A DNA stretch of 64,000 bases from Minisyncoccota bacterium (lineage in GTDB: Bacteria > Patescibacteriota > Minisyncoccia > JAHIHE01 > JAGLIN01). The translations under genes and the position numbers were made by a program. Under the pieces are notes generated by a model. It did no database searches, was not told the origin of the DNA, and saw only the letters and a list, made by a program, of their open reading frames with translations. Location: the NCBI GenBank assembly GCA_023142995.1, contig JAGLIM010000024.1, forward strand, positions 6,071 to 70,070. Reading direction: 5' to 3'. Each line of letters starts with the position of its first letter. The stretch's first letter is position 1. This document shows positions 1,309-41,781 of this stretch, piece by piece.

Positions 1309-1437
1309 AAAACTAAATTGGAAAGTTTTAAGGGTTTTAGAGCATGAAATAATAAAAAATTTTGATAAAACAATTAATAGAATAATTGTTTTTTTAGAAA
1401 GTAAAAATAATTAAACAATATTTAAGTATTTAAAATA

Positions 1438-4400: not shown

Positions 4401-5031
4401 CAAAATTCACGGATTATCCAAAGAAAGGTCGGAAGATGAACGCAATTTAATTAATGCTCTTCATGAAACAACAAAAAATAGTGTTTTTCTTGCTGAAGAC
4501 CTTAATTTACCTATTTATTGTGATGATCGCATATTGCGAGTTATTTTAAAAAATGAACACAAAGTAAAATCTTTCTCTACTCAATCTTTAATCAATTTGG
4601 CGCAAACAAAAGGGGTGATATCGCTTGATAAGCGATTTGAGTTGCAGAAAGAAATGATAGGACTTAAATATGAATTTCTTCCAATAGATGCGACTTTTAT
4701 ATATTATTTTTTAAAAAAGGCAAACTATAAGATAGAGAAGATACAAGATATAATTTTTACACTTGTGCAAAAAGAAACAAGTATTCAATCTCTGGAAGTA
4801 GTACTTGCTGATCTTTTCTTTCTACTTTTAATTGAACGGTTAATAGACAACAAAACAAAACTTAAAATATTTAGAAGTATATTATCGCAAGCTTCGCTAA
4901 ACCATTGTTTAGATAATATAGAAGAAGGAATTTTTATGAACCTTCAAAAAAAAGTAAAACCTGAAAAACATAAACAATTAAAAGATATGCTTAAATTATT
5001 TTTTCGTGATTTACACGGTTCGTGCAGTTAA
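1438..5031 (+). CDS. large multidomain protein: N-terminal Mrr-like PD-(D/E)xK nuclease fold, central TPR repeats, C-terminal PIN-like domain
   Basis: N-terminus FSKLCKHLFAAEFDDFQTIDDSGGDKGNDGY...LFQLYCPKK matches the Mrr_cat D-x-G-x-D-G...Q-x-K pattern. There are multiple TPR-like 34-aa repeats. The C-terminus VVVDIYPLFLL...VIDELTE...FLAEDLNLPIYCDDRIL resembles PIN acidic motifs. No P-loop is seen. Confidence 0.7.
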   Translation: MDNISQIISPDQFSKLCKHLFAAEFDDFQTIDDSGGDKGNDGYSEKQKTLFQLYCPKKPNKATDSKYKLKIKRDLDKAKELVDSGKYIIEKWIFVTPAELREDVHTYIRTEAAERGFIGIAWASSKLIVFFTKHSNLRSQFPDLIQPDIEQKIDLLDSKIIGHTESINNVKKKYRTKLEQNYQRRINEAKIKIDDEKNEAAKKEYETILRDLNSESEKIDPHLFFRVHNNLGACELNLGNTKEAAKFFEKAYSFKPDQSIAIANYALSKSLEDNPKEGLAIIEDLLKKHPTDNHAISVKANILYTLERYEKLIPFLKEKGETVLSCWYKGFEAMSKDDYDTAIFCFEKVIHLEPKNIKAYFLAAQNVMIGSREFVKNNAFLPDKISSAIKEKFTKAISWLKKAVELLQDKEQNKEQKADLEMAYTNLSGCFVALGLFDEAIEFALKAISVDPISPTPFLNKGIAQLKLGKHKEAISSFKKYKDLGGDEFNVDRHSAFCSLRTGDLDTAEKIIIPLLEQKKDLDLDVAELGVELYSRRLDNDKSEALLKKLEENFSDNSQALRIRAAHLQRLGMSGVELLLQKALESSKSESEKMLAEMDLADFLYSTKDYSRAAEIYQRYINIKEATTGTLKYAECLYSSGQYGNLLKWIGTLGTSVREHSLIQQVEAYSNLYLGNLEKASSSFKKLFEKTSDNLKYLVFYGMCRFRLGKEHEAKKAYDAVKNRVIETDDVVILSGGYEFIGEWKIALELTYKALKNDSNNPKAHLVYIFTFLRREQVEEKDFEDKYVKLFQKSISEFSKRFPEEKALQTFEVKDKDISPMLKMVDQLAESTENATGLYRESRVPLAVIPKFTNRKPFDVWVAFTKMPDVGIKILFGSPDEISTEALTIKEYYDNSVVVDIYPLFLLTHFNQLELLPKLFKKIYVHQSVIDELTESIDEHRISVRKGQTIFGKINGQHKLIDIPPEQVQKTVALLEKVRDFLSRDKSCKIHGLSKERSEDERNLINALHETTKNSVFLAEDLNLPIYCDDRILRVILKNEHKVKSFSTQSLINLAQTKGVISLDKRFELQKEMIGLKYEFLPIDATFIYYFLKKANYKIEKIQDIIFTLVQKETSIQSLEVVLADLFFLLLIERLIDNKTKLKIFRSILSQASLNHCLDNIEEGIFMNLQKKVKPEKHKQLKDMLKLFFRDLHGSCS

Positions 5032-5195
5032 TAGAAAGAACGAAAATTATTCACTCAAAAAAATTTGAACTTTTGTAAAAAACAAGACAAAATCTTACTT
5101 TGCATTTGTATAGAACTGTGCAATTTTGATTCTGTTTAATCTGTTTTTTTATATGTGCAAGAACCATAATATTATTTTTTTTCCTTGGTTAATAA

Positions 5196-5299
5196 GTTGC
5201 TTACCCTCTCCAACTTCCCCTCAACTCTCTCCCAATTCTCTAAAATCCCAACCCAAACCACTGGGAAATTGTTCCCAACTGTATCCTGTCGCCCCGACA
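5196..5299 (+). repeat. R1 CT-rich intergenic repeat, copy 1
   Basis: ccctctccaacttcccctcaactctctcccaattctc.aaaatccc.acccaaaccac.gggaaattgttcccaact..atcctgtcgccccgac is shared with copies at 6613, 7476, 8662 and 10543. Confidence 0.8.
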
Positions 5300-5503
5300 C
5301 ACATAGATATTTTGAAAATTAACGCAAGAGCGGATAAATTTTTTTATGACGAACCTAGGCTAAAAAGAAATTATCGCAAAAAGACATGGCAAATTTTAGG
5401 CGTTTAACGGACATGTATTAACAGTTTAGAGAATCATTCACTTCTGAATGTTTAAAAAATTGCTAAAGCGCTATAAATAAATTCTAAATATTTATGTAAC
5501 ATT

Positions 5504-5899
5504 ATGAAAGATTTTGAAGCCTCTCAACACAGAGAAAACCCTCCAAGGAAAGTTGAAAATATTTTTGTGGAGAGCGATGCTCAAAGAAAACCAGCTGAGA
5601 ACAAAAAAAGCGAAAATGAAAATGCAATTGCGAATTGGCCAATTGAAAAAATAATGCGTCGTCTCTTGCGAGAAGACAAACATTTTAATCAAGACATAGT
5701 ATATGAAACTTTAATGAAAGAATTGCCAGCAGAAGAAATAGAGACAAAAATAATGGAAGACTATATGGGCTGTACTGGAGAGTCAATAATTGATAAAGTA
5801 CGTCAAGCTTTGGGCGATGACTATGTTCGATTGTTAATTGAACCTTCGATCGGTACGAGAGTGGACGAGTTGATTGTATTTGCTCAAATAGAAGCTTGA
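5504..5899 (+). CDS. hypothetical protein
   Basis: 131-aa ORF in a cassette-like slot directly after R1 copy 1. Confidence 0.45.
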   Translation: MKDFEASQHRENPPRKVENIFVESDAQRKPAENKKSENENAIANWPIEKIMRRLLREDKHFNQDIVYETLMKELPAEEIETKIMEDYMGCTGESIIDKVRQALGDDYVRLLIEPSIGTRVDELIVFAQIEA

Positions 5900-5908
5900 G
5901 AAGGGAAG

Positions 5909-6508
5909 TTGCCGACACCTATAGAATTAAGGAGAAAGTTTAAGGAATCACTTGGCAAGAAAAAGGTTTACAGAGTTGCGACATTAACAGAGCAAGAATT
6001 ACAAGAAATAAAACAAGATGGATTTCTTGCAAACTATTATCGTGTTCGAAGTGAAGAGGAGATTTTGCAGAATGAGGACGGATATGAAAGCGTTGAGTAT
6101 AACCTTTCCAACTTAATAGGCAGAGTCAATATTCATGCTGGAGGGTTTGCAAGCACTAAAGATTCTATGCTAATCAGTACAAGCGATTTTCCAGAGATGG
6201 CGCAGTATGCAGCATTTGTACAACTTAAAGATGATTGGCAAGAAAGAGAAAAAACAGGGCAAAGACTTTATTCAATTCCTATTGAAATTGATGAGTTTCG
6301 GAACATCCGATATGGCAAATATTTACCACATCACATTAAAGCAGAAGGTACTTGGCATAGTAATCAAAAAGATATTCCTTACAACGATCCAGGTATTGAA
6401 TCATTTGTGGAGTTTAGGATCTCTTCAGAAAATATTTTAACCGACGAGATTAGACAGATTGATACAACACAAATTCCAAATTTTGAATTTGTACCAAAAG
6501 GAAAGTAG
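5909..6508 (+). CDS. hypothetical protein (TTG start, SD-like GAAGGGAAG upstream)
   Basis: 199-aa ORF starting 10 nt after the previous stop. No in-frame ATG near the start. Confidence 0.45.
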   Translation: MPTPIELRRKFKESLGKKKVYRVATLTEQELQEIKQDGFLANYYRVRSEEEILQNEDGYESVEYNLSNLIGRVNIHAGGFASTKDSMLISTSDFPEMAQYAAFVQLKDDWQEREKTGQRLYSIPIEIDEFRNIRYGKYLPHHIKAEGTWHSNQKDIPYNDPGIESFVEFRISSENILTDEIRQIDTTQIPNFEFVPKGK

Positions 6509-6612
6509 TTGCATCCTAAATCAGCATGGTATTTTCCTGTATTTTGTTCAAATTCAAGTGGTGTTTAGTAATTGCGACACTTATATTTGCAACTCAAAAC
6601 TTATAATAAAGC

Positions 6613-6706
6613 CATCAATCTTTCCACTCTTTCCAACTTTCCCTCAACTCTCTCCCAATTCTCCAAAATCCCCGCCCAAACCACTTACATCCTGTTGCCC
6701 CGACAA
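6613..6706 (+). repeat. R1 CT-rich repeat, copy 2 (internal ~18-bp deletion)
   Basis: Same consensus as copy 1 but lacking the cgggaaattgttcccaac segment. Confidence 0.8.
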
Positions 6707-6717
6707 AAAATATCGTA

Positions 6718-6756
6718 AGAGACTAGGTTTCCAATTGGAAACCTAGTCTCTTTTTG
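6718..6756 (+). terminator. intrinsic terminator (15-bp perfect stem)
   Basis: AGAGACTAGGTTTCC-aatt-GGAAACCTAGTCTCT followed by TTTT. Confidence 0.7.
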
Positions 6757-6779
6757 AGAGTTATGGTGCATGCGGGTCA

Positions 6780-6808
6780 TTGACAAGGATGGGATTTTCT
6801 GATAGACT
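6780..6808 (+). promoter_or_regulatory. sigma70-like promoter (TTGACA-17-TAGACT)
   Basis: TTGACA at 6780-6785, 17-bp spacer, TAGACT at 6803-6808. GCATGC lies 7 nt upstream of the -35. Confidence 0.55.
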
Positions 6809-6881
6809 ACACGGTCATGGTAAATCGTGGTAAAAATGTTGTTCTTTTAAATAAAAGGAAGAAAAATAATCTTTTTCGGGC

Positions 6882-6926
6882 GGATAAAATATTCACGAAT
6901 ACTAAAGTATATGTAATATTTTATCC
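6882..6926 (+). promoter_or_regulatory. 12-bp perfect inverted repeat in the 5' leader of the 6964 gene
   Basis: GGATAAAATATT-N21-AATATTTTATCC lies between the promoter at 6780 and the SD-preceded ATG at 6964. Confidence 0.35.
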
Positions 6927-6963
6927 ATCCGAAAGTAATAGTGGTGGAACCGGAGGTGCTCAA

Positions 6964-7356
6964 ATGAGCGATAGTGAACATGAGAAATTTCAAGATAAAA
7001 ATATAGAGATGGGAAGAAAAATCGCTGGATTGCCAGTAAGCGCGTCTTTAAACGAAATCGTCATTGCTCTTGCTAAGAAGGGAGAATATGCAGAGGCAGT
7101 TGAACTGCTCTTTGGATCAGGGAGAGAGCCACCTTTGTCAGATGATCAGATGGGGTTTGGTGTTTATATTCGGCTGTGGATTGGAACCTACCCCGATATG
7201 ATTGAGAAAATCGTGAATGCGTATCATTGGACTTCAGAAGAGGTAAGTGCCAAGAGAAAGAAAGGAGGCTTTAAAATCCACGTATATCCAGATGAAGCAT
7301 TTATGATTGAGGAGCCCGTTGCAACTGAGCTTCTAACAATTTTGTTGCCACAATAA
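6964..7356 (+). CDS. hypothetical protein (start chosen at SD-preceded ATG; ORF track starts at 6817)
   Basis: GGAGGT lies 6 nt before ATG 6964. Upstream in-frame sequence is AT-rich leader containing the inverted repeat. Confidence 0.45.
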   Translation: MSDSEHEKFQDKNIEMGRKIAGLPVSASLNEIVIALAKKGEYAEAVELLFGSGREPPLSDDQMGFGVYIRLWIGTYPDMIEKIVNAYHWTSEEVSAKRKKGGFKIHVYPDEAFMIEEPVATELLTILLPQ

Positions 7357-7475
7357 TGCTATATAAAATTCTTCTTTCGCAGTTCTCAAATATTATAAAG
7401 TGCTGGTCATATTAAATGTGGCTAGCCATTTTTTTTGTAAAGTTTTTTGTAAAGTGTAATTATATTTTTTACTTT

Positions 7476-7586
7476 ATCAACCTTTCCACCCTCTCCAATT
7501 TCCCCTCAACTCTCTCCCAATTCTCCAAAATCCCCACCCAAACCACCGGGAAATTGTTCCCAACTACATCCTGTTGCCCCGACAAG
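7476..7586 (+). repeat. R1 CT-rich repeat, copy 3 (most complete)
   Basis: atcaacctttccaccctctccaatttcccctcaactctctcccaattctccaaaatccccacccaaaccaccgggaaattgttcccaactacatcctgttgccccgacaag. Confidence 0.85.
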
Positions 7587-7589
7587 AAA

Positions 7590-7623
7590 AATAACCTTTT
7601 TATCTGAGAGGTTATTTTTTTTG
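7590..7623 (+). terminator. intrinsic terminator
   Basis: ATAACCT-loop-AGGTTAT followed by TTTTTTTT. Confidence 0.65.
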
Positions 7624-7671
7624 TAGATTTAGAAGCTTCAAGTTTTTTAGTGGTGTGAGATGGCGGAGCTA

Positions 7672-7700
7672 TTGACAAAGATTATGTTTTTGGTATAATG
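7672..7700 (+). promoter_or_regulatory. consensus sigma70 promoter (TTGACA-17-TATAAT)
   Basis: TTGACA at 7672-7677, 17-bp spacer, TATAAT at 7695-7700. Confidence 0.7.
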
Positions 7701-7766
7701 AAAGGTCAGTTAATTTGGAAATAAAAAATAATTTATCAAATTCTGACACAATGGAGTTGCAAAGAA

Positions 7767-8441
7767 ATGATCAAATCAACATTTATTGACAATCTTGAAT
7801 CTATCGGGGAAGGGATCTTTGAAATCTTGAAAACATTAAACATATCTTCAGATACTAACTTTGAATTAGATATGTTTATGTTCAGGTTTTGTGAGAAAAA
7901 AGGTATAATTCGTTTCTGGAAAAAAGATCAGAATGAAATTATTTCAGAATATGACATTGTAGAAAATGGAATCTCAGTTCTAAAGCATGAAAGCATTGAA
8001 TCTTTGACATATGTCTCAACACCAAGAATTGAAGTAGGAATTTGTCAAAAAGATTCTCCTCAGGTTAGATTTTATTGGAAAAAAAATGACAATGTTGGAG
8101 AATTAGTTCATGTCAAAGTTGATCTAGGAGAAAACAAAAGGAGGGAAGGAGATAGAATATTTGTGGGTTACGGTAGAGATATTAACGACTTCAAAGCTCG
8201 TAGAGGAGCGAGCATGGTTAGTGAGAAGATTAGTATACCGCCAAATTTACCTTCGGTTTTATCAGGAGATAAAATATTAGGACATAAAATTCTTTGGAGC
8301 ATTGTTTTTGAACCTAAGGCAAAAAAGATTTTCGATGAATCTGCGCTTCAAGAGTTTCGTAAAGAAATTGATAAACTAATTTCTGATAAAAATCTGCGCT
8401 TCGAGAGTTTTATAAAGAACAAAGGTTTTATAAAAGATTGA
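7767..8441 (+). CDS. hypothetical protein
   Basis: 224-aa ORF. Its 3' end contains a ~53-bp tandem duplication (8338-8462) spanning the stop. Confidence 0.5.
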   Translation: MIKSTFIDNLESIGEGIFEILKTLNISSDTNFELDMFMFRFCEKKGIIRFWKKDQNEIISEYDIVENGISVLKHESIESLTYVSTPRIEVGICQKDSPQVRFYWKKNDNVGELVHVKVDLGENKRREGDRIFVGYGRDINDFKARRGASMVSEKISIPPNLPSVLSGDKILGHKILWSIVFEPKAKKIFDESALQEFRKEIDKLISDKNLRFESFIKNKGFIKD

Positions 8442-8532
8442 TAAAGAAATCTCTGATAAACAAGATTAAAACCATACTATAATAGTTCTTTCGGAATGTT
8501 TGAACTATAAGGATATTTTTTTGGTCTAATTC

Positions 8533-8570
8533 AATGGAGTAAAGGATTCAACCTGATCTCCATTTTTATT
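8533..8570 (+). terminator. intrinsic terminator, T2 module (AATGGAG...CTCCATT + T-run)
   Basis: The stem flanks an 18-nt loop. The same module recurs at 12716 and, diverged, at 14321. Confidence 0.55.
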
Positions 8571-8661
8571 TGTCCCAAATCGAATAATATCTCAAAAATG
8601 ATTGTACGAGAATCTTTTTTGACTCTTGTTATTTATATGATTTTAGTTAATTTTTGATTCA

Positions 8662-8778
8662 TCTCATCAACCTTTCTACTCTCTCCAACTTCTCCTCAAC
8701 TCTTTTCCAATTTTCCAAAATCCCCACCCAGACCACCGGGAAATTGTTCGGGGCTACATCCTGTCGCCCCGACAAAAG
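8662..8778 (+). repeat. R1 CT-rich repeat, copy 4
   Basis: Same consensus. This variant ends gttcggggctacatcctgtcgccccgac. Confidence 0.85.
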
Positions 8779-8808
8779 AAATAATCCTTTAGAGGGTTAT
8801 TTTTTGTA
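8779..8808 (+). terminator. intrinsic terminator
   Basis: ATAATCC-tttagag-GGTTAT (one G.U pair) followed by a T-run. Confidence 0.5.
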
Positions 8809-8843
8809 TAGAGTTAGAAACTTTGAATTTTATATGCGTACCA

Positions 8844-8871
8844 TTGACAAAATCTTTCTTTAATATATTAT
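8844..8871 (+). promoter_or_regulatory. sigma70-like promoter (TTGACA-16-TATTAT)
   Basis: TTGACA at 8844-8849. Candidate -10 TATTAT at 8866-8871. Confidence 0.5.
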
Positions 8872-8975
8872 TGAATGGTTCAAGGAACGAACCGACAATG
8901 CTATTTTCAGTGTTGGATAAAGCAGTGTCCTTTGACAATTTATGAAGGAAAAAATATACGGAGGTATGGAAGAAG

Positions 8976-10190
8976 ATGAACTTTTTAGATCTGGAAACAG
9001 AAACGATAAGAAGGGAAATGGAAGAACAGATGCAAGTTTGCCCTAAATGCGGGATAAAGCAACCTCTAAATGAGGTGTGGATTCAGAAGAAGAGTTGGAA
9101 GGGCAAATATAGTTCTCAAAACCTTAAAAAACTATGCCCGTCATGTGACGAAGATTATAGAATATTCGTAGAATATGGTGGACAGTTTGAAAATTTGAAA
9201 ACACTCGATGATTTCAGGGTGGTTTTTGAAGAATTTTTGGTAAGTCCCAAAGTGGAATTATCGGCAGTTGAACGTAGTTATCAGGTTTTAAAAGAGTTTG
9301 CGGGATTAAGAGTGCAAATTGCAATTGAAGCCCAGAAATTTTCGGGACGATTTAGTTCAAGAAGCAAGCGAATGGATGAGATATATCCAATTAGTCAAAG
9401 CGTTTTTGCTCCTCAGATAACCGAAGAATTCGGTGAAAAAGCAGGAGGTGTAGGATGGCAAAAATTCTTGATGAGCCAAGTGGTGGAAGTAAAAGCGGTC
9501 AAATCAGGACTGGAAAGGGAGATTGCCAAACAAGTTGGCTTTTATCCAATATGGAATATGTATGCAAAACACATCCCAGGAATCGGGGAATGGTTGACAG
9601 GATATTTGATTGCTAGTATTGGCGATCCAAAAAGGTTTCCTGATACAGGACATCTTTGGGGCAATGCAGGTCTAAGGGTCACAAAGGAAAATTTGGCTCA
9701 ATCGCGTACGCGAGGTACAAAACTAAATTATGATCCGTTGCTCAAAACCGTGATTTGCTTTATTCTGCCTCAGTCTTTGCAGTGGCAAAAAAGCAGGTTT
9801 CCTAATTCGCCTTATTCTCAGCTTTTCGAAAGTGTAAGACTCAAGGAACAGGAAAAGGCCATAAATGCTCATCCTGCAATATGTAACATAAGAGGATGTA
9901 AAGAAACCGAGATTGTAAACCTTGGATTTAAGAATGATTCAAAAGGAGGAAGAACATTCCAAGGATTCTGCTGTAAAAAAACGCTTGGTACGAAAAAAGA
10001 GCACAAATTCTTCAATCCTGCCCACATTCAAGCGAGAGTTATGCGAGAAGTTGGCAAAAAGTTCTTTGCTGATTTTTGGCATACAATGTTGTATTTTGAA
10101 AGTGAGAATCCGGATATATACGGCAGAGAAGGTGAACACGCGGCAAACGAAAGAATACTCTGGGTGTTTGAACAAGCATTGAAAGCATAA
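8976..10190 (+). CDS. zinc-ribbon / helix-hairpin-helix DNA-binding protein, possibly related to the IS110-family transposase C-terminal domain
   Basis: CPKCG...CPSCD zinc ribbon. HhH motif HIPGIGEWLTGYLIASIGDPKRFP followed by LWGNAGL, as in the IS110 Transposase_20 domain. Second Cys cluster CNIRGC...GFCCKK near the C-terminus. GGAGG lies 11 nt upstream of the ATG. Confidence 0.5.
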   Translation: MNFLDLETETIRREMEEQMQVCPKCGIKQPLNEVWIQKKSWKGKYSSQNLKKLCPSCDEDYRIFVEYGGQFENLKTLDDFRVVFEEFLVSPKVELSAVERSYQVLKEFAGLRVQIAIEAQKFSGRFSSRSKRMDEIYPISQSVFAPQITEEFGEKAGGVGWQKFLMSQVVEVKAVKSGLEREIAKQVGFYPIWNMYAKHIPGIGEWLTGYLIASIGDPKRFPDTGHLWGNAGLRVTKENLAQSRTRGTKLNYDPLLKTVICFILPQSLQWQKSRFPNSPYSQLFESVRLKEQEKAINAHPAICNIRGCKETEIVNLGFKNDSKGGRTFQGFCCKKTLGTKKEHKFFNPAHIQARVMREVGKKFFADFWHTMLYFESENPDIYGREGEHAANERILWVFEQALKA

Positions 10191-10212
10191 GTCGAAGCCT
10201 AAGACCATAAGT

Positions 10213-10475
10213 TGGGTGTGAAAAACCAGAATTGTTTTGTCTTTCAAGACCATGAGTATCCTGTGTAAAACCACAACGGATTTGTCTTTGGTGGTGTTAG
10301 ATGAAAATTTTACACCACTAAAATTAAGACCATTCAATCGCTATGAGAAATCAGTAAAAAAATGTTTCTTAAGGCCATTTCCCAATTGTGAAAAACCAAC
10401 AAGTCGTTGCTCACTAAAGCCAGCATTCATGTGTGAAAAATTCATGAAGCGTTTTAGAACAATGTCAAGCCTCGG
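10213..10475 (+). repeat. degenerate tandem ~45-bp repeats carrying TGTG(A/T)AAAACCA cores
   Basis: Cores at 10217, 10261, 10386 and 10431. Units are ~70% identical. Confidence 0.35.
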
Positions 10476-10542
10476 AGAAATAATAAACAAAAATTCTTCG
10501 GGGTTATCTTTTTATATTTTTTTGACTGATTATTTTTATCTA

Positions 10543-10657
10543 TCTCATAAACCTTTCCACTCTTTCCAACTTTCCCTCAACCCTATCCCAATTCTCCAAA
10601 ATCTCCACCCAAACCACCGGGAAATTGTTCGGGGCTACATTTTGTTGTCCCGACAAG
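10543..10657 (+). repeat. R1 CT-rich repeat, copy 5
   Basis: Same consensus as copies 3 and 4. Confidence 0.85.
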
Positions 10658-10682
10658 AAAAATAACTTTTCGTTTTGGTATA

Positions 10683-10711
10683 TTGACATTTTGGTAAAGA
10701 TATGCTAAATT
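10683..10711 (+). promoter_or_regulatory. sigma70-like promoter (TTGACA-17-TAAATT)
   Basis: TTGACA at 10683-10688. -10 at 10706-10711. Confidence 0.5.
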
Positions 10712-10757
10712 GACTAGTCAACAGAATTAAGTAAAGCTGTTGTTGGAGGAACCAAGG

Positions 10758-11177
10758 ATGAGAGATTGTAGTGAAATTAGAATTGTACCTTTAAATGGTG
10801 ATGAAAATGAAACGGAGATATTAATTGTTTTCATTGCAATGGATTATGCAAAGGAGTCTATAAGAAAAGACTTTGAGCATGAAGCATTGCTTTATAATGA
10901 TGTAGGTATTCCCGGACTGCGAATAAAAGAACTGATGCATTCATCGTTAATTAGCTGTAAGCAACATTATAAAGAAGAAGAGTATGCTTCAAAAGATGTT
11001 TTTGAAGAATTCGTACAGTATTTTAAGGATGACTGTAGAAAAATAAATGAAAAAGAAAGATACAGGATCATAAAAATAACAGATGATCAAAAGGAGATCA
11101 AATTTGAACAAGAAAAGAAACAAGAAAATAGACTTTTAAGATTTATAAATAGACTTTTAAAAGTCCTAAGGATGTAA
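10758..11177 (+). CDS. hypothetical protein (start at SD-preceded ATG; ORF track begins at TTG 10740)
   Basis: GGAGGA at 10744-10749 lies 8 nt before ATG 10758. Confidence 0.45.
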   Translation: MRDCSEIRIVPLNGDENETEILIVFIAMDYAKESIRKDFEHEALLYNDVGIPGLRIKELMHSSLISCKQHYKEEEYASKDVFEEFVQYFKDDCRKINEKERYRIIKITDDQKEIKFEQEKKQENRLLRFINRLLKVLRM

Positions 11178-11228
11178 ATTTTGCGATTTATATCTTTTTT
11201 ATTTTTTACTTTATTAATTCTTTTATCA

Positions 11229-11258
11229 ATTTTTTCCAAATTCTCCAAAATCCACATT
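11229..11258 (+). repeat. R1 repeat remnant (partial)
   Basis: ccaaattctccaaaatccaca matches the central part of R1. Confidence 0.4.
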
Positions 11259-11299
11259 TAAATAGATAAATAAAAAATAGCTTCTGTAATCCACAGAAA

Positions 11300-11953
11300 C
11301 TATATCAATGATTTTGGTAGCATATTCTCAGATTTCCATTTAGCTCTTAATTCTTCCAAGTTCATATTTATGTCTTGGTAGAAAGTGGGTTTTAAGGATA
11401 CTGGGTTGGCTACAAATTTGAAGAAGATTTGTGCTAGTGGTTCATCTTCAATTGGTAAGAAGAACCAAAAATCGTTCAAATTGATGATCTCAACAGTCCA
11501 GCTATTGTAGTATCCTGGATTGCCAAGTCCAGCATCAAGCGCAATACTAATTCCCCATCTTACTGTAGTGGATCTAGCACGAACCTCGCTTGTTATCCAT
11601 GGCACAGTACTGCCGATGAATTCAACTGTATGCCCCAGTATTCTTTCTATGGGTGCTAGCAAAATTCCCTTTTTGCCTGTTTTCTTTTCTCTTGAATCTT
11701 TCATTTCAAATTCATTTCTCCATTAAGCAATCGTTTTTGCCATAAATGGTCCTTCAAAAACTTTAGAAGGATCGTGTGGTGTTACGATTGTGTTTGGTGG
11801 AAATTTTATAACTCGATAAAAGTCTGGAGCCACGCGTAGATCGCAAGCAGTTCCAGTTAACATTTCAGGATAAAACGGGTCTATAACAATATATCCTTTT
11901 TCTCGAGCTTCTAAAATTGTTTCATCGGAGAGAACTCCTCCTGTTTCAAACAT
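11300..11953 (-). pseudogene. dcd: dCTP deaminase/dUTPase-family gene interrupted by one in-frame TAA
   Basis: N-terminal ORF (11723-11953) carries the DLRV...F motif. C-terminal ORF (11300-11704) carries ARSTTVRWGISIALDAGLGNPGYYNSWTVEIINL, the Dcd/dUTPase core. Both are in the same frame, separated only by TAA plus 6 sense codons. Confidence 0.55.
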
Positions 11954-12044
11954 TATTTATTACCTCCTAATAACTTCAATTCGTATGTTATGTTCGTCAT
12001 AAATTATATGACATCATATTAGATTATCATTAAATTAGTAATTT

Positions 12045-12072
12045 GTCAATGGTAAACACACTCACCATTGAC
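12045..12072 (+). promoter_or_regulatory. operator-like perfect inverted repeat overlapping a -35
   Basis: GTCAATGGT-N10-ACCATTGAC. The right arm overlaps TTGACG of the promoter at 12068. Confidence 0.4.
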
Positions 12073-12096
12073 GAAGATAAAATACTATGATAGACT
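12068..12096 (+). promoter_or_regulatory. sigma70-like promoter (TTGACG-17-TAGACT)
   Basis: It shares the TGATAGACT -10 region with the promoter at 6780. Confidence 0.5.
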
Positions 12097-12157
12097 GTTT
12101 AGTCATGATAAAACCGTGACAAAAATATTGTTTATTTAATTTAGGAGCGTGAAATAA

Positions 12158-12664
12158 TTGACTGAAAAAGTAAACATAGATGAAATAATAGCATCTTTAA
12201 AAACAAATGAGAAAATAGATGTTATTAGAATTATAGAGAAAGTAAGTACCTATCGTAGGATTGTCGAGGTTTTTCTTGTTCCAGCGAAAGTAGAAACTTC
12301 AAATGGAATAGTTGATCTTGATGGTCTGCAGAAACTTTTAGAGGGATTAGTTTCTTGCCAGATGGAAGTTCGGGAGTTCGAACAAGTCGGAGACGATATC
12401 TATTTTGGATACTTACGTGCTAACATAAATGTTATGGCAGCCGTAAACAGAGTGGAAGGAGAAAAATGGGAGAATTTTACAATTCATTTGTATCCAAATA
12501 TTTTAATTGGAATTCCTGCAGCTTATAGTGAAGATAATATTTATTATAGATCAGAGATAACGAGAGCTCACTATTATCAAACGATGATAGCAGCATACTT
12601 TATGGCACCTCATTTTGGTGAAATTGGTTTGTTGTTATCTAATTTAGCTGAAAAGAAAGGATGA
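12158..12664 (+). CDS. hypothetical protein (TTG start, AGGAG 10 nt upstream)
   Basis: 168-aa ORF. Confidence 0.45.
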   Translation: MTEKVNIDEIIASLKTNEKIDVIRIIEKVSTYRRIVEVFLVPAKVETSNGIVDLDGLQKLLEGLVSCQMEVREFEQVGDDIYFGYLRANINVMAAVNRVEGEKWENFTIHLYPNILIGIPAAYSEDNIYYRSEITRAHYYQTMIAAYFMAPHFGEIGLLLSNLAEKKG

Positions 12665-12715
12665 TCAGTAAAATATTTCAACATTGGTATTTCTTTTTTT
12701 AAAGTCTATAAATCT

Positions 12716-12752
12716 ATGGAGCAAAGGGTTCAACCTAACCTCCATTTTTATT
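12716..12752 (+). terminator. intrinsic terminator, T2 module copy
   Basis: ATGGAG-caaagggttcaacctaac-CTCCAT followed by TTTTTATTT. Near-identical to the 8533 module. Confidence 0.55.
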
Positions 12753-12840
12753 TATCTTAAATTGAAAAATATTTCATAATTATTTTTAAAAATCTTGGTT
12801 TGTACTTAATTTATTTTATTAATATTTCTATTTTCTCTAA

Positions 12841-12904
12841 TTTTTCAAAATTCTCATTTAAACTATTGAAAATTTCATTGATTTGACAAGAAAAATATCG
12901 TAAG
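12841..12904 (+). repeat. R1 repeat remnant plus degenerate copy of the 6718 terminator
   Basis: ttttcaaaattctcatttaaa...gacaagaaaaatatcgtaagaaactagatttctaattggaaacctagc parallels 6690-6750. Confidence 0.5.
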
Positions 12905-12969
12905 AAACTAGATTTCTAATTGGAAACCTAGCTTTTTTTGAGAGTATGCATGCAAGAGTATGCATGCTA

Positions 12970-12998
12970 TTGACAAAAATGATGTTTTCTGTTATATT
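12970..12998 (+). promoter_or_regulatory. sigma70-like promoter (TTGACA-17-TATATT)
   Basis: Preceded by a duplicated GTATGCATGC motif. Confidence 0.5.
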
Positions 12999-13038
12999 TC
13001 TCAGTTGTAATAAAATTTTGATAGAAATCGTTCTTTTA

Positions 13039-13086
13039 CAAACATTCCTTGCGGGTCAAATGTAATAAAACAAGCTTTATTACATT
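13039..13086 (+). promoter_or_regulatory. 21-bp perfect inverted repeat (hairpin) in the 5' leader of the 13145 gene
   Basis: TTGCGGGTCAAATGTAATAAA-acaagc-TTTATTACATTTGACCCGCAA. No T-run follows. Confidence 0.45.
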
Positions 13087-13144
13087 TGACCCGCAATATG
13101 GGAATAAATAAAATAATAAAAAATTCAGAAGAGGTAGTATAAAA

Positions 13145-14380
13145 ATGTATAAAAAAAGTATTTTTGTTGTTATGATGGCTATTATTGCTATTATTGCTAC
13201 TGTTGTTGTGATAGCAGCATCTAGCTATGAAGATTGGAAGGAGATGCCAGAGAATAGAGATCCATATCACATAGAAGGAGTGATCTGTGATATGGAAAAT
13301 GACTTACCAGCTAAGGATGTTTCTGTCACTGTTTCTGATGAAACGGGGAGAATATTTGAAACAAAAACTAACACAGATGGCATGTTCAGTTTTGATATTC
13401 TCGCTTGTATTTTGTGTGAATCTCAGTATCAAACCATTTCGACGGAAACAGTAGATCATGATTCTGTCGATTCAATTTCACAGGTTATGATGTATGATGT
13501 ATGGATGTGCAGTGATCCCTGGATAGTATCTATCAAGATAGAAAAAGATGGATACAGCTCAATTGAAGAAACATTTTCATTAGGAAAAGAAGGTGGGTTC
13601 TATAATGTTTTTATTTCTAAGATTGATATTAAAGATAGAGCATCTTCATGGATAGCTCTTTATGAGAAAAACGAATCAGAATTTGTCTCAGAAAAGTTTA
13701 GCAATGCTGAATTCTGGCTAAATTCTGCAAGAGCAGAGCCAGAGTTGTTCAAGATAGATTTTGTCCGAGATAATGCATGCAAGGCAAATATCTCTCTCGA
13801 AGAATTAGGCACATCAAATGATGAGCTTTTAAATCTTGAGAGACAAGCATATATAAGCAATGCTGAATTTTGGTTGGAATCTGCAAGAAATGATCCTGAA
13901 TTGTTCAAGATAGATTTTGTCCGAGATAATGCATGCAAGGCAAATATCTCTCTCGAAGAATTAGGCACATCAAATGATGAGCTTTTAAATCTTGAGAGAC
14001 AAGCACGTATAAATAATGCTGAATTCTGGCTAAATTCTGCAAGAGCAGAACCAGAATTGTTCAAGATAGATTTTGTCCGAGATAATGCATATTATGCGTA
14101 TGTTTCTATTGAATATATAGGCACATCAAATGATGAGCTTTTAAATCTTGAGAGACAAGCACGTATAAATAATGCTGAATTCTGGCTAAATTCTGCAAGA
14201 GCAGAACCAGAATTGTTCAAGATAGATTTTATCAGAGATAATGCATGCAAGGCAAATATCTCTCTTGAAAAGTTAGGCACATCAAATGATGAGCTTTTAA
14301 ATCTTGAGAGAATGGCAAATGGAAGGAAGAAGACAATAGCAATTAGTTCTTCACCTTCCTTTTTATTTGTCTTAAATTGA
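13145..14380 (+). CDS. secreted or membrane-anchored repeat protein with carboxypeptidase-regulatory-like domain
   Basis: N-terminal hydrophobic anchor, then VTVSDETGRIFETKTNTDGMFSF (CarboxypepD_reg-like), then four near-identical 46-aa repeats NAEFWLNSARAEPELFKIDFVRDNACKANISLEELGTSNDELLNLERQARI. Confidence 0.6.
   Translation: MYKKSIFVVMMAIIAIIATVVVIAASSYEDWKEMPENRDPYHIEGVICDMENDLPAKDVSVTVSDETGRIFETKTNTDGMFSFDILACILCESQYQTISTETVDHDSVDSISQVMMYDVWMCSDPWIVSIKIEKDGYSSIEETFSLGKEGGFYNVFISKIDIKDRASSWIALYEKNESEFVSEKFSNAEFWLNSARAEPELFKIDFVRDNACKANISLEELGTSNDELLNLERQAYISNAEFWLESARNDPELFKIDFVRDNACKANISLEELGTSNDELLNLERQARINNAEFWLNSARAEPELFKIDFVRDNAYYAYVSIEYIGTSNDELLNLERQARINNAEFWLNSARAEPELFKIDFIRDNACKANISLEKLGTSNDELLNLERMANGRKKTIAISSSPSFLFVLN
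13690..14310 (+). repeat. 4 x 138-bp tandem coding repeats
   Basis: Units are almost identical at the nucleotide level. Confidence 0.8.
14321..14369 (+). terminator. terminator-like hairpin + T-run (diverged T2 module) lying inside the last codons of the 13145 ORF
   Basis: GGAAGGAAGAAGAC...GTTCTTCACCTTCC then TTTTTATTTG. The same ttatttgtcttaaattgaaaaatattt tail as at 12746. Confidence 0.35.
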
Positions 14381-14566
14381 AAAATATTTTTAAAATGATT
14401 ATACTAGGATCTTTCAGTTTTCATAGAGCCTGAGGCAGATTTTTAGATCTTGTCTCTTATTTTTGATTAAGAGGTAATTCAATTTAAAATAAAAATCCCG
14501 CAGATCATCATATTCGAAAATAGATTATCTACGGGTAAGTTTTCTTATATATTGTTTGATCTAATG

Positions 14567-15562
14567 TTAGCACAATATTAGATCAAGAGTTTCTTTGTAG
14601 GTAGCATCTTTAATCTCCATTGCACATCTTCTTCCGAAATCTATCCTTTCTCCATATAAGTAGAATGGATATGGTGTTGCTCCTGCATCTGGAGACCCTG
14701 GCATTCTGAGGCTCAGATCAATAGGTCTCAATGTTTCTTTTGCATCTCCCATACATTGTATTGCGAAGGGTCCAATCATACCTTGAGGATAATGTTCCTC
14801 AATTGTCTTAACAAGGTTCCAGCCCATATTTACTACTTGCTCAAGCAGAGATTCTCTCAGGCTGATTGGAATGTGCGTAGCTTCTTCGCCGTTTCCAAAT
14901 TGTCTTCTTGTGTCAGCACCCAAGAATTCCAGATCTTCCCACGTTGGAGAATAGAAATAGTTCAGATTGATCAATAGATCACCTGGAATATACTCTTGTA
15001 TAGGCGCGCTTTTGAATGCCGTTTCTACGAAATTCTTATCATCTGATGAAGCATTTCCAATAACCATTTTTAACTTCTCATAGTATTCTTTAGTAGAGTT
15101 TACGACAACAAAGTCTCGAGCGAAAGCTCTTTCCTTTAAGAATTGAGATGCTTTGATCAGAACAGGCCGATCTATTTCCTCTGGACTGTTAAATGCCAAT
15201 GGGGTCGGTAGTTTGGCTTTTTCCATCAGGAAATCCTGGTTCTTTTCTATCTTGTATGGTTCTGCTCGTTCCTCTACTTCCATAAGATAAGGATTTCCAA
15301 AGAATGGAACATCCATTTCATATATCGGATCATAACCGTTTTGTGGATCTCTCAGATATACTGCCAGAGATCTATTCAAATTGATTATTCCATTTTTTTC
15401 TCTCACCCAATCGGCAACTGGTTTGCCGAGAAGTTCTTTCCAGTCTTTAACGACATGGACTTCTTGAACGCAACCTACCTTACGATTTCTGTGACTTCTC
15501 TCGTAGAACATTTCAGTATATGTTCTGTGTCTTCCTTTTTTAGCAAGAACAAAACTTCCCAT
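14567..15562 (-). CDS. purP: PurP-like 5-formaminoimidazole-4-carboxamide ribonucleotide synthetase (ATP-grasp), start uncertain
   Basis: Coordinates run from the first ATG. Homology continues upstream to ~15700 (ILEGYNTDNLSCGTIGSHSALDVCSGARLEG = PurP N-terminal GSHSAL motif), with a GGGAGG SD at 15693-15698 but no canonical start codon. Confidence 0.5.
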   Translation of the reverse strand: MGSFVLAKKGRHRTYTEMFYERSHRNRKVGCVQEVHVVKDWKELLGKPVADWVREKNGIINLNRSLAVYLRDPQNGYDPIYEMDVPFFGNPYLMEVEERAEPYKIEKNQDFLMEKAKLPTPLAFNSPEEIDRPVLIKASQFLKERAFARDFVVVNSTKEYYEKLKMVIGNASSDDKNFVETAFKSAPIQEYIPGDLLINLNYFYSPTWEDLEFLGADTRRQFGNGEEATHIPISLRESLLEQVVNMGWNLVKTIEEHYPQGMIGPFAIQCMGDAKETLRPIDLSLRMPGSPDAGATPYPFYLYGERIDFGRRCAMEIKDATYKETLDLILC

Positions 15563-15841
15563 TCCTTCCAGACGTGCTCCACTACAGACGTCCAGTGCAG
15601 AATGACTTCCAATCGTGCCACAAGAAAGGTTATCTGTGTTATATCCTTCTAATATAGATCCAATATCTTCTCTGTCTTTTTTCGTGTTAATTCCTCCCTG
15701 TTGATGTTTTAAGGAACAAATAAAGCCAAGTTATTTTTTAACTTGACCCTCCTTCCTTAGAACAATACTAAACTAAAACATTTAAAAAGGCAAGGTGATT
15801 ATTAATTTGCCTGAATTATTGTTATTTTAAATTCTGTTTCA

Positions 15842-15964
15842 ACAGGCTGTCTAAAAACTTTCTTGGGTAGATTAAAGCCCTCGCTTTAATCTCTTGCCTA
15901 AGCCATTTGAAATTTGAGCGAGGGCTCAAATCTACTCGAATAGGGACTTATTTAGACAGCCTGT
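15842..15964. repeat. nested imperfect palindrome (MITE-like or structured RNA element)
   Basis: Outer 14-bp perfect stem ACAGGCTGTCTAAA/TTTAGACAGCCTGT enclosing inner stem AGCCCTCGCT/AGCGAGGGCT. Confidence 0.5.
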
Positions 15965-15978
15965 CAAGTCTAAATATC

Positions 15979-16028
15979 AAAAACGTAGTGTATTTTGCAA
16001 CGGCCGTTGCAAAATACACTACGTTTTT
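15979..16028. terminator. bidirectional intrinsic terminator: 25-bp perfect palindrome flanked by A- and T-runs
   Basis: AAAAACGTAGTGTATTTTGCAACGG|CCGTTGCAAAATACACTACGTTTTT, immediately 3' of the minus-strand HD gene. Confidence 0.6.
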
Positions 16029-16090
16029 GACAAAATAAAATATAGAAAAATATAAGATATTGAATAAAGATTATAAAAAAGAGCCATAAT

Positions 16091-41773: not shown

Positions 41774-41781
41774 ATAATGAT

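Follow-up and report, generated by a model that had tools for sequence, protein, structure and literature searches.

Genomic islands that stand in tandem, divided by partial copies of a tRNA or tmRNA gene and with the older islands pushed inward, have been described previously (bioRxiv 10.1101/2020.12.28.424599; PMC3146451), as have CIMEs, which lack an integrase and retain att sites (PMC5704250). The locus analyzed here, from the tiny CPR (Patescibacteria) bacteria, belongs to a known kind of genomic island, in this case unusually regular and without an integrase; it looks as if small cassettes devoid of an integrase had accumulated one behind another at a tRNA gene. With Dehalococcoides ssrA-GIs (PMC3146451) and Prochlorococcus tycheposons (bioRxiv 10.1101/2020.12.28.424599) it shares several features: one end is occupied by an intact tRNA or tmRNA gene, direct repeats of that gene's 3' end lie between successive islands, an extra conserved element sequence is found just upstream of every repeat, older insertions are displaced inward by newer ones and their remnants decay, and the cargo is strain-specific, some units being devoid of integration genes. 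However, ssrA-GIs and tycheposons have recognizable integrases (the serine recombinase DsiB, and tyrosine or large serine recombinases, respectively), whereas none was found in the units of the CPR arrays; their units typically span several to tens of kb, whereas many CPR units hold one gene (0.7-2 kb); and the CPR arrays reach 7-8 candidate att copies per 10 kb, with a conserved arm of ~95 nt that is extremely C-rich. Like CIMEs (PMC5704250), the CPR units are att-bounded, have no integrase or transfer genes, and are lined up in tandem where a target gene has its 3' end. CIMEs, however, are described as having decayed from one particular ICE or IME, beside which they are usually found singly, whereas no parent element is in sight of the CPR array, and the compact promoter-gene-arm architecture recurs in many CPR genomes. 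In this respect, the CPR units look more like a dedicated cassette format.

The window, i.e., the whole 64-kb stretch of DNA that was analyzed, contains five near-intact direct copies of a C-rich repeat of ~115 nt, all on the + strand (nhmmer coordinates). Beyond these and the decayed remnants, no further copies were found elsewhere in the 64 kb. A 31-mer taken from the repeat has five matches at no more than three mismatches, with zero expected from shuffles. The five copies, the two remnants, and the notion of a cassette array bounded by a conserved repeat, all proposed in the initial annotation, are borne out. The features of the array are as follows, the repeat copies being named att in anticipation of the interpretation given below.

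1-5185, + strand: first cassette, cut by the window start, with a LexA-like repressor (359-1039) and an 83-aa ORF (1057-1308)
1438-5031, + strand: 1197-aa LmuA-like nuclease/TPR/PIN protein of the first cassette (cassette annotated by Pfam and PADLOC matches)
5186-5299, + strand: att copy 1, C-rich P arm and tRNA-like core ...ATCCTGTCGCCCCGACA, the last 10 nt at the 3' end identical to tRNA-Pro; nhmmer 103 bits
5300-6610, + strand: cassette, ORFs 5504-5899 (131 aa) and 5909-6508 (199 aa) from the ORF list, neither matched in Pfam or PADLOC
6611-6705, + strand: att copy 2, with a 17-nt internal deletion; nhmmer 64 bits
6706-6760, + strand: hairpin module after the core, stem 6717-6752, found also behind the remnant at ~12841 and behind L006_5162
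6780-7356, + strand: cassette, promoter TTGACA-17-TAGACT (6780-6808), ORF 6817-7356 (179 aa)
7470-7584, + strand: att copy 3, of all copies the nearest to the family consensus, 94% identical to L001_532; nhmmer 107 bits
7585-7643, + strand: P' arm after copy 3, terminator hairpin 7591-7616, T-run, then GTAGATTTAGAAGCTTCAAG
7672-8441, + strand: cassette, consensus promoter TTGACA-16-TATAAT (7672-7699), ORF 7767-8441 (224 aa)
8661-8774, + strand: att copy 4, a variant carrying a CGGGGC...GCCCCG local hairpin
8775-8828, + strand: P' arm after copy 4, hairpin, T-run, then GTATAGAGTTAGAAACTTTGAA
8844-10190, + strand: cassette, promoter 8844-8871, ORF 8976-10190 (404 aa)
10542-10655, + strand: att copy 5; nhmmer 100 bits
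10683-11177, + strand: cassette, promoter 10683-10711, ORF 10740-11177 (145 aa)
11227-11260, + strand: att remnant, truncated and decayed, weakly detected (8 bits)
11300-12664, both strands: conserved distal block, split dcd on the - strand (11300-11704, 11723-11953) and ORF 12158-12664 on the + strand
12841-12940, + strand: AT-decayed att remnant and hairpin module (stem 12902-12931), from alignment
12970-14380, + strand: last promoter-bearing unit, promoter 12970-12998, ORF 13145-14380

The remnant at 11227 has as its positional counterpart a better-kept copy in a related contig (L032, 15306-15401). The one at ~12841 is below the nhmmer threshold and is visible only through alignment and the hairpin module next to it, which matches the module after copy 2 at 88% identity; duplication of sub-modules had been noticed before and is confirmed. 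The initial annotation also had the repeat always downstream of a small ORF, but copy 1 comes after the gene for the 1197-aa protein.

In the repeat, a P arm is joined to a tRNA core, in many cases followed by a P' arm with a covarying terminator hairpin. Its 3' terminus reads ...ATCC(C/T)G(G/T)(C/T)GCCCCGACA, and the last 9-19 nt match the 3' end of tRNA-Pro(UGG). Most of the 50 listed copies agree exactly with that end over their last 9-10 nt, which are the only exact bases in common; identity reaches 15-19 nt in L004_2155, L005, L015, L007_18241, two copies in L012, and L020/L021. An intact tRNA-Pro(UGG) gene, found with ARAGORN on the strand of the repeat, occupies the upstream end of the array in seven related loci (L004, L007, L010, L011, L012, L019 and L022), with priA just past it in four of the seven (L010, L011, L012 and L022). 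Two further loci, L008 and L009, have this P arm joined to ATCCCTCAGCGCCCACC, the 3' end of tRNA-Val(UAC), and a tRNA-Val gene lies upstream of the array on the same strand; that is, the core covaries with the type of tRNA. Copy score falls with distance from the tRNA (pooled Spearman rho -0.37, p 0.04). Because of the tRNA-Pro 3' end within the repeat, the upstream tRNA-Pro in seven loci, and the switch to tRNA-Val in two, we consider the repeat to be, quite probably, the att site of a family of small integrative units of Parcubacteria-type CPR bacteria, with the 3' end of a tRNA gene as their target. The tRNA-Pro gene of the window's own genome would be located just left of the window, judging by the 95%-identical relative L007. 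The tRNA 3' end in the repeat and the tRNA at the array head had escaped the initial annotation.

The P arm (about 80-95 nt; C 49%, G 3%) has essentially no structure and is made of iterated ~10-nt CTCTCCAAY motifs, with autocorrelation peaks at 9 nt and 21 nt; in most cassettes it is on the coding strand. Insertions of 20 or 25 nt are seen in six copies, and a 17-nt deletion in one. A short target-identical core, a long arm of iterated ~10-nt motifs and a second arm opposite are also properties of lambda-type attP, but the composition of the CPR arm is far more skewed than that of known attP arms, and its motifs are putative binding sites of a recombinase or accessory protein. Identification of the repeat as a MITE was rejected, and so was that as a structured RNA: in agreement with the earlier view, the arm is without covariation and without an Rfam family, and a stem is restricted to copies 4 and 5.

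The P' arm at 7585-7643 aligns with sequences 3' of tRNA-Pro in L004 and of tRNA-Val in L008. This post-core sequence (hairpin, T-run, TATAGAGTCAGAACCTTCGAAC) thus occurs also after the intact tRNA genes, with a more diverged version 3' of tRNA-Pro in L022, as an element-derived P' arm in attL would be expected to look. Its hairpin has 13 pairs; compensatory changes are seen in five, and the G-U wobbles are consistent with the + strand, on which the hairpin is predicted to be an intrinsic terminator. The claim that every copy is followed by a terminator holds for copies 2, 3 and 4, but is overstated, because the hairpin and T-run are missing after copy 1 and vestigial after copy 5; moreover, the supposed terminator/promoter module includes, as one part, the conserved P' arm belonging to the att site. 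P' arms fall into several unrelated classes that are mixed within arrays and have no strict linkage to either neighboring cassette, which a single-crossover model does not predict. The near-consensus promoters reported earlier are present, with TTGACA -35 boxes and good -10 boxes at 6780, 7672, 8844, 10683 and 12970, and TTGACG at 12068.

A unit, read on the + strand, would thus comprise an optional P' arm with the intrinsic terminator, a sigma70-type promoter, one to few cargo genes, the P arm, and the core, the latter being a copy of the tRNA from the T-loop through the discriminator base. Units would have entered successively beside tRNA-Pro(UGG), each insertion re-forming the tRNA and displacing older units downstream, where their att copies decay; such successive insertions would account for the arrayed direct repeats and for the unrelated cargo, largely of the defence type, between them. 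Crossover may take place where the variable part of the T-stem meets the invariant (C)GCCCCGACA, and insertion may be carried out by a site-specific recombinase in trans; alternatively, the units may be decayed remnants, by now mobilizable only in cis.

The same repeat is found in at least 20 other CPR/Patescibacteria contigs, in arrays that reach 7-8 copies per 10 kb and with different cassette content, as the initial annotation would have it for a shuffling locus; the cargo there is largely of the defence type (restriction-modification, OLD, AbiEii-like, reverse transcriptase), and some cassettes run on the strand opposite to the repeat. Window positions 1-5299 are 95% identical to L007 10002-15294, and the homology breaks off exactly at 5299. 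In L007, this lexA/TPR-PIN unit has att repeats on both sides and is positioned downstream of tRNA-Pro, so that what was first taken for the upstream flank is one more cassette. L032 shares the distal flank with the window (83% identity, L032 15490-16955) and yet has six att copies with wholly different cargo. Where cassettes are common to genomes in differing contexts, the 3' boundary is exactly ...CCCCGACA (window/L007, L001/L006) and the 5' boundary is close to the -35 box (L001/L006, L006/L012). The nearest relative of a copy is in another genome for 33 of 37 copies, which we read as a sign of their probable independent origin.

No recombinase was found that could serve the array: tyrosine or serine recombinases are absent from the 25 most recurrent of the 104 families matched by 107 ORFs in and around arrays, although the other matched families may include a single occurrence; none adjoins the tRNA in six loci (L007, L010, L011, L012, L019, L022); and the 49 ORFs scanned across the window, a set that leaves out some ORFs of at least 110 aa, contain none other than a large serine recombinase that is part of a separate element at tRNA-Glu, in line with the earlier remark on the lack of an integrase nearby. 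The C-rich arm has no match in IMG/VR, GenBank phages or PLSDB plasmids, and neither excision products nor empty sites were observed. As no integrase was found, the enzyme may act in trans. The failure to find an integrase, together with the mixing of P' classes, might also indicate that RecA-type homologous recombination alone, e.g., after natural transformation, keeps and reshuffles the array, the tRNA-like end being a relic with no active dedicated integrase. Repeats of 115-175 nt at about 82-94% identity suffice for double crossovers, and breakpoints at repeat borders, as always seen, are likewise predicted. We nevertheless consider this unlikely: homologous recombination cannot join a single arm precisely, and at one and the same T-loop position, to the 3' ends of two different tRNAs; non-functional scars should not remain ~82% identical across genomes when flanking housekeeping DNA of the same genomes is at 74-79%; and the invariant 9-10 nt that enter the functional tRNA, next to a variable T-stem part, fit a defined crossover.

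It is distinctly improbable that the arm works mainly as a 3'-UTR RNA, either rut-like or anti-Shine-Dalgarno/regulatory, that insulates or silences foreign genes. Its composition, lack of structure and placement on the coding strand of most cassettes, immediately before a covarying terminator, would suit such a role. However, rut sites require composition and not ~82% identity between genomes, some cassettes lie on the opposite strand, the arm has neither covariation nor an Rfam family, and no explanation is given for the tRNA core, for the tRNA that heads the array or for the Pro/Val switch. We place the locus among tRNA-seeded tandem integrative islands, and not in a family of 3'-UTR regulators, one of the two options first suggested, because the repeat ends in a tRNA 3' end and arrays start at tRNA-Pro or tRNA-Val. 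An RNA-level role of the arm could coexist with that of an att site.

We give very little weight to the idea that the repeat encodes a ~38-aa minus-strand protein (M/L-SGQQDVVGNNFPVVWVGILENWERVEGKLERVERLMR), each cassette having its own small amphipathic-helix protein. Most copies keep the frame open (2 stops in 24), pN/pS is 0.47, entropy in the last 20 codons is 0.66 at third positions and 0.29 at others, the stop codon position is conserved, a heptad pattern is present, and public databases hold eight such predicted "proteins". But the period-3 signal of the whole ORF is not significant (p 0.09), an antisense frame scores nearly equal (0.52), the start codon varies (TTG, GTG, ATG, CTG, TTA, TAG, GGG), and the 20/25-nt insertions in six copies and the 17-nt deletion shift the frame while the nucleotides of both halves are still conserved. 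In addition, AACAATTTC is near-invariant even at synonymous sites (one base changed in 2 of 24 copies), a terminator without a promoter is directly upstream, the first codons are merely the reverse complement of the tRNA end, and a heptad could be imitated, with no coding involved, by iterated motifs at spacings of 9-12 nt and of 21 nt, i.e., seven codons.

An integron-type system, in which an IntI-like integrase would act on the repeat as an attC folded from one DNA strand, has next to no probability and is refuted on structure: the array does resemble sedentary chromosomal integrons (Vibrio VCR) in its length, in its small cassettes, which mostly share one orientation and each precede a ~120-nt family-homogeneous repeat, and in its accessory, defence-type cargo, but the analogy drawn in the initial annotation fails, as the repeat ends cannot pair, one strand being almost all pyrimidine and the other almost all purine, DNA folds are short local hairpins only (MFE -6 to -15 kcal/mol), RYYYAAC/GTTRRRY cores, hairpin-forming attC, attI and IntI are lacking, every cassette brings a promoter of its own, and recombination would use a tRNA 3' end as its core.

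The genes between repeat copies are mutually unrelated and have their own TTGACA promoters. The 404-aa protein, correctly described as IS110-like, combines zinc ribbons with a single part of the IS110-type transposases, their C-terminal domain (Pfam Transposase_20 at residues 198-266; match to PDB 9mty_A limited to residues 173-295) and has no homologue in the other repeat loci compared. The decayed state of dcd is evident from its Pfam DCD match, split into two pieces at 11300-11953; the gene is intact in L032. ORF 13145-14380 contains four tandem repeats of 52 aa each.

The C-rich direct repeats of the array are attachment (att) sites that carry the 3' end of a tRNA gene. A repeat search of the window recovered a five-member family with starts at 5180, 6603, 7465, 8655 and 10536, and a 31-mer taken from the repeat has five matches with at most three mismatches, all on the forward strand and confined to the array within the 64 kb, against none in 100 shuffles. 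The conserved unit, as delimited by an nhmmer profile, and the near-consensus promoters found 3' of the repeats are as follows.

5186-5299, forward strand, repeat copy 1
6611-6705, forward strand, repeat copy 2, with a 17-nt deletion
7470-7584, forward strand, repeat copy 3
8661-8774, forward strand, repeat copy 4
10542-10655, forward strand, repeat copy 5
6780, TTGACA -35 box of a near-consensus promoter
7672, TTGACA -35 box of a near-consensus promoter
8844, TTGACA -35 box of a near-consensus promoter
10683, TTGACA -35 box of a near-consensus promoter
12970, TTGACA -35 box of a near-consensus promoter

A promoter near consensus is present for each cassette (the unit between repeats). Two remnants accompany the five copies: one at 11227 is a weak nhmmer match (8 bits), and the other, near 12841, is more decayed and AT-shifted and was recognised from the alignment and from the hairpin module that follows it, 88% identical to the module after copy 2. 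The recurring repeat and the cassette array proposed in the initial annotation are both confirmed, with the repeats now read as att sites. Its claims that every copy is followed by a terminator and lies 3' of a small ORF need correction: copy 1 has no terminator and comes after a 1197-aa gene, and copy 5 retains only a vestigial hairpin. A duplicated terminator module (8527, 12709 and 14324) is window-specific and was rejected as a part of the family.

The ORFs between the repeats are mostly unannotatable, as had been noted from the sequence; they have no Pfam or PADLOC match, save for a protein matching only Transposase_20 and a split dcd, and the exceptions upstream are a LexA-like repressor and an LmuA-like/TPR/PIN protein. 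The Transposase_20 protein is the IS110-like product recognised earlier (404 aa, 8976-10190). It has zinc-ribbon-like Cys pairs at both termini and, of the domains of IS110-family recombinases, only the C-terminal one (Tnp/HhH), with no detectable DEDD/RuvC domain, and its gene is cassette cargo unique to the window among the loci examined. The dCTP deaminase gene, also described before as decayed, is split into ORFs of 76 and 134 aa (11300-11953, minus strand), is intact in the related locus L032 (217 aa, 15530-16183), and is probably a recent pseudogene. Further on, four tandem 156-nt (52-aa) repeats of 87-100% identity (13703-14467) lie inside ORF 13145-14380, whose product has a CarboxypepD_reg-like N-terminal domain and is probably secreted or membrane-anchored.

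A search beyond the genome, suggested in the initial annotation, placed the repeat in other contigs of CPR (Patescibacteria), with differing cargo. A conserved 38-aa ORF read from the minus strand of the repeat served as the search handle. In a scan of one genome per species it was found in ten contigs, nine of them from CPR metagenome-assembled genomes labelled Parcubacteria, Paceibacterota, Moraniibacteriota, Saccharibacteria or Patescibacteria; the tenth, from Nitrospirota, has no repeat copy. Eleven further contigs came from a metagenome scan and nine more from protein look-ups. Most of the longer loci contain arrays by nhmmer (eight copies in 9.8 kb in L004, seven each in L006 and L021, six in L032 and four in L012). 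Within any one locus the copies are clustered and always in a single orientation, and mean pairwise identity among 37 full-length copies is 82%. Most cassette genes share the C-rich strand and have the repeat 3' of them, and some are inverted. Predicted proteins P0001-P0009 (25-64 aa, from metagenome annotations in public databases) are translations of either strand of the att arm, most likely spurious gene calls.

The identity of the core follows from the tRNA genes next to the arrays. When the cassette common to L003 and L004 is compared together with its flanks, L004 has an intact tRNA gene where the upstream repeat would sit, and the 3' end of this gene, ...GAATCCCGGCGCCCCGACA, runs into the same hairpin and TATAGAC...CTTCGAAC that are found after many repeats. 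All repeats end in tRNA-like ...ATCC(C/T)G(G/T)(C/T)GCCCCGACA, and exact identity to the 3' end of tRNA-Pro(UGG) extends over the last 9-10 nt in most copies and over 15-19 nt in eight. ARAGORN places tRNA-Pro(UGG) at the upstream end of the array, on the strand of the repeat, in L004, L007, L010, L011, L012, L019 and L022, and priA is found just beyond it in L010, L011, L012 and L022. At two other loci, L008 and L009, the same C-rich arm is fused at the same T-loop position to ATCCCTCAGCGCCCACC, which is the 3' end of tRNA-Val(UAC) (17 nt identical in L008), and a tRNA-Val gene lies upstream on the same strand in both.

L008 234-343, tRNA-Val(UAC)-retargeted arm variant, 2-8 kb downstream of a tRNA-Lys/tRNA-Val pair
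L009 4575-4683, tRNA-Val(UAC)-retargeted arm variant, 2-8 kb downstream of a tRNA-Lys/tRNA-Val pair

Restriction-modification, AbiEii-like and radical-SAM proteins make up the cargo of these variant loci. Altogether, nine related loci have the intact target tRNA at the array end in the same orientation (seven tRNA-Pro, two tRNA-Val). The core covaries with the neighbouring tRNA, since the L008 and L009 cores match the tRNA-Val that lies upstream of them; such covariation is the signature of an attachment site, and the switch from Pro to Val is the decisive natural control. The window begins inside its first cassette, so that the tRNA predicted to head its array would fall outside; in L007, a 95%-identical relative, the tRNA is about 4 kb beyond the position that matches window base 1.

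Each att site consists of a P arm, a core and a P' arm. The P arm, about 95 nt long and C-rich, is made of iterated CTCTCCAAY-like motifs, with an autocorrelation z of about 4 at lags of 9 and 21 nt; a near-invariant GGGAAATTGTTCCC hairpin comes next. The core extends from the T-loop to the discriminator base plus CA; its T-stem part is variable (CCTGT, CCTCG, CCCGG) and (C)GCCCCGACA is invariant. We infer that crossover takes place at the border of these two parts, because each integration makes the bases on its right part of a functional tRNA and leaves those on its left with the element. In its commonest form the P' arm measures about 55 nt and comprises a hairpin, a U-run and then (A/G)GTATAGASTCAGAACCTTCGAAC; further classes of post-core sequence exist. 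The same P' sequence stands after tRNA-Pro in L004 and after tRNA-Val in L008, and L022 has a more diverged form of it after tRNA-Pro, which argues that the P' arm comes from the element (attL being tRNA, core and P'). Five of the 13 pairs of the P' hairpin have compensatory double changes, a T-run comes after it, and its G-U wobbles fit the forward strand only; this covariation and strand bias point to a genuine intrinsic terminator, predicted to serve both tRNA and cassette transcripts.

About ten copies have a GC-rich palindrome of 9-36 nt (GCCTGCC...GGCRGGC) inserted at one identical place in the P arm, following TGGGAGAG as read on the purine strand; a T-G wobble in its stem fits that strand.

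L004 5191-5325, palindrome insertion
L004 2155-2275, palindrome insertion
L012 5030, palindrome insertion
L012 10002, palindrome insertion
L021, palindrome insertion
L022, palindrome insertion
L023, palindrome insertion

Comparisons between genomes show where the cassettes begin and end. Window 1-5299 and L007 10002-15294 are 95% identical, and the homology ends exactly after ...CCCCGACA. The cassette common to L001 and L006 has its 3' end at the core, and cassettes shared by L001 and L006 and by L006 and L012 start at about the -35 box. In L032 the distal block containing dcd is 83% identical to that of the window, yet all six cassettes differ, so relatives do not have identical cassette content. 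For 33 of 37 copies the nearest relative is in another genome (identity 0.85 within loci and 0.81 between loci), and local duplication or concerted evolution is therefore not the source of the copies. Decay tends to grow with distance from the tRNA (pooled rho -0.37, p 0.04), the trend that entry of new units at the tRNA would produce. The P' classes show no strict linkage to the cassette on either side, which suggests a further contribution from homologous exchange within the repeats.

A LexA-like repressor, an 83-aa protein and the 1197-aa LmuA-like nuclease/TPR/PIN protein (Pfam PIN-TPR-GreABC) travel jointly (window 1-5031, L007 10292-18115), and the unit is 95% identical in two genomes that are otherwise unalignable around it. 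In L007 it also holds two methyltransferases and a NucS-like nuclease, has a second repeat as a boundary and is about 4 kb downstream of tRNA-Pro. The unit is likely to be a mobile defence module controlled by an SOS-like switch. Cargo elsewhere includes HinP1I-type and type IIG restriction-modification systems, DNA methyltransferases with a NucS-like nuclease, OLD-family AAA_15-TOPRIM proteins, AbiEii-like AAA_21 proteins, reverse transcriptases partnered with PD-(D/E)XK and HTH proteins, HTH/SocA-Panacea modules, RhuM, GNAT, an MFS transporter and a C39-peptidase/VWA protein. Cargo at the same site varies between related genomes while the flanks stay, with priA and tRNA-Pro on one side and Na/Pi transporter, PhoU, Na/H exchanger and rpsL on the other. 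The distal flank of L010 (Na/Pi cotransporter, PhoU, Na/H exchanger, EngB, M50 peptidase, rpsL, rpsG) corresponds to window 18350-24865; L012 has the same block from the Na/H exchanger onward, and L004 and L006 have only the Na/H exchanger, at the contig end.

One alternative is a small protein gene, the 38-aa minus-strand ORF itself. Its frame is open in most copies, with pN/pS of 0.47 and with third positions most variable in the last 20 codons. An antisense frame has a pN/pS of 0.52, the period-3 signal over the whole ORF is not significant (p 0.09), and the putative start codon varies between TTG, GTG, ATG, CTG, TTA, TAG and GGG. In addition, AACAATTTC is almost invariant, synonymous sites included, and internal repeats at 9-12 nt and at 21 nt (seven codons) could alone yield a heptad-like translation. 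A 17-nt deletion and the 20- or 25-nt insertions, GC-rich palindromic sequences, in six copies shift the frame, with both halves conserved as nucleotides. A coding role is thus improbable, and the indels, the variable start and the period-3 statistic probably bear out the earlier view that the repeat is non-coding. That view also held that the repeat is not a structured RNA, and we agree: the region has no Rfam match, the arm shows no compensatory pairs on either strand, its wobbles give contradictory evidence, and RNA-type covariation is limited to the P' terminator hairpin. The suggestion of a 3'-UTR regulatory element is superseded by att sites with a tRNA 3' end. Resemblance to integrons of the Vibrio superintegron type, also proposed, does not extend to their defining features, namely attC folds with RYYYAAC/GTTRRRY cores, IntI with attI/Pc, and promoterless cassettes. 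The two ends of the repeat cannot pair, because the first 80 nt of one strand comprise 49% C and 3% G; they remain unpaired, and the only folds are small local hairpins within the last 40 nt. No IntI was found in scans of the window ORFs or among the 25 most recurrent families of array ORFs, and the cassettes have their own promoters, unlike the promoterless cassettes of integrons. MITE or IS ends were considered in view of the TGT... terminus and the iterated motifs of the arm, and were rejected because the terminus has no inverted copy and the copies of the repeat are clustered and co-oriented. The 3' end of a longer gene serving as attB was dismissed, as there is no longer homologue among 5.8 billion proteins and no long ORF at single-copy loci.

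The best-supported reading of the arrays is that units were integrated one after another by site-specific recombination at the tRNA 3' end and would thereby have accreted in tandem. Tandem accretion is known from the ssrA islands of Dehalococcoides (PMC3146451), the tycheposon islands of Prochlorococcus (bioRxiv 10.1101/2020.12.28.424599) and ICE/IME/CIME tandems (PMC5704250). The loci are of a known kind, tRNA-seeded tandem islands, with which they share repeats containing a tRNA 3' end, a tRNA at the array end and variable cargo; an accompanying recombinase is the feature that was not found. They also resemble CIMEs (integrase-less cis-mobilisable elements), having att sites on both sides and no integration or transfer genes, and no parent ICE or IME from which the cassettes could derive was found. 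Their format appears to be undescribed, and we found no report of it in the literature: single-gene, self-promoted, integrase-less units in dense arrays with a conserved arm of about 95 nt that is C-rich, in CPR.

The initial annotation had also proposed a search for a co-occurring tyrosine or serine recombinase, and none came to light in the array, next to the tRNAs at the array heads, or among the 25 most recurrent of the 104 Pfam families matched by 107 array ORFs. The array and the 49 scanned window ORFs have none, save for the large serine recombinase of a separate element at tRNA-Glu, and no integrase was found in contigs with matches to the small ORF. The Transposase_20-only protein was rejected for this role (C-terminal domain only, no homologue in the other loci). 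The 427-aa ORFs near the arrays of the window and L007 were also set aside, being unrelated to one another. The arm was not found in IMG/VR (scanned with one peptide and three DNA patterns, whose few matches are chance k-mers), in GenBank phages or in PLSDB plasmids. Within tandem accretion, units may be mobilised in trans, in an integron-like economy, or may be CIME-like relics now moved solely by homologous recombination. We put forward tentatively that CPR may hold a new integron-like gene-capture platform, in which free-standing mini-cassettes are inserted and excised singly at tRNA-Pro or tRNA-Val by a recombinase from elsewhere in the genome or from a helper element, making up a shuffleable reservoir of defence genes. 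Such a mini-cassette would have its own promoter, one to three genes and an attP of about 175 nt composed of C-rich arm, tRNA core and terminator arm.

CPR bacteria have tiny genomes and many defence systems and, to our knowledge, almost no characterised mobile elements. The locus shows how their defence genes are stacked and exchanged, at a fixed chromosomal hotspot between priA/tRNA-Pro and phosphate/ion transporter genes that is filled with compact cassettes, each tagged by a 115-nt att arm. Finders of the TIGER/Islander type, which depend on integrases, are likely to overlook these arrays, whose units have none; the arm is a sequence handle for finding the islands and their largely unannotated cargo in metagenomes, and for the recombinase hunt. 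If the cassettes are individually mobile in trans, they would represent a second, mechanistically different solution to the job of integrons, and gene capture of this sort would give a defence-gene reservoir to organisms with almost no known mobile-element biology.

The separate small integrated element occupies window 37603-43200, at tRNA-Glu(CUC) (37603-37677), and ends near a LOOT RNA.

37637-39220, minus strand, large serine recombinase, 3' end overlapping tRNA-Glu
40093-41160, AAA_25 RepA-like ATPase
41270-41773, DnaG-type zinc-ribbon protein

The LOOT RNA, an sRNA motif of unknown function (Rfam RF03000, 43052-43182; 84 bits against a gathering score of 46), is just upstream of a 400-aa ORF without a Pfam match. 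Defence-like genes are also found outside the array, at 48638-55888: an M78 (IrrE-like) peptidase with a Beta_protein (48638-50948), a Schlafen/AlbA_2 protein (52629-53972) and a Fic protein (54836-55888).
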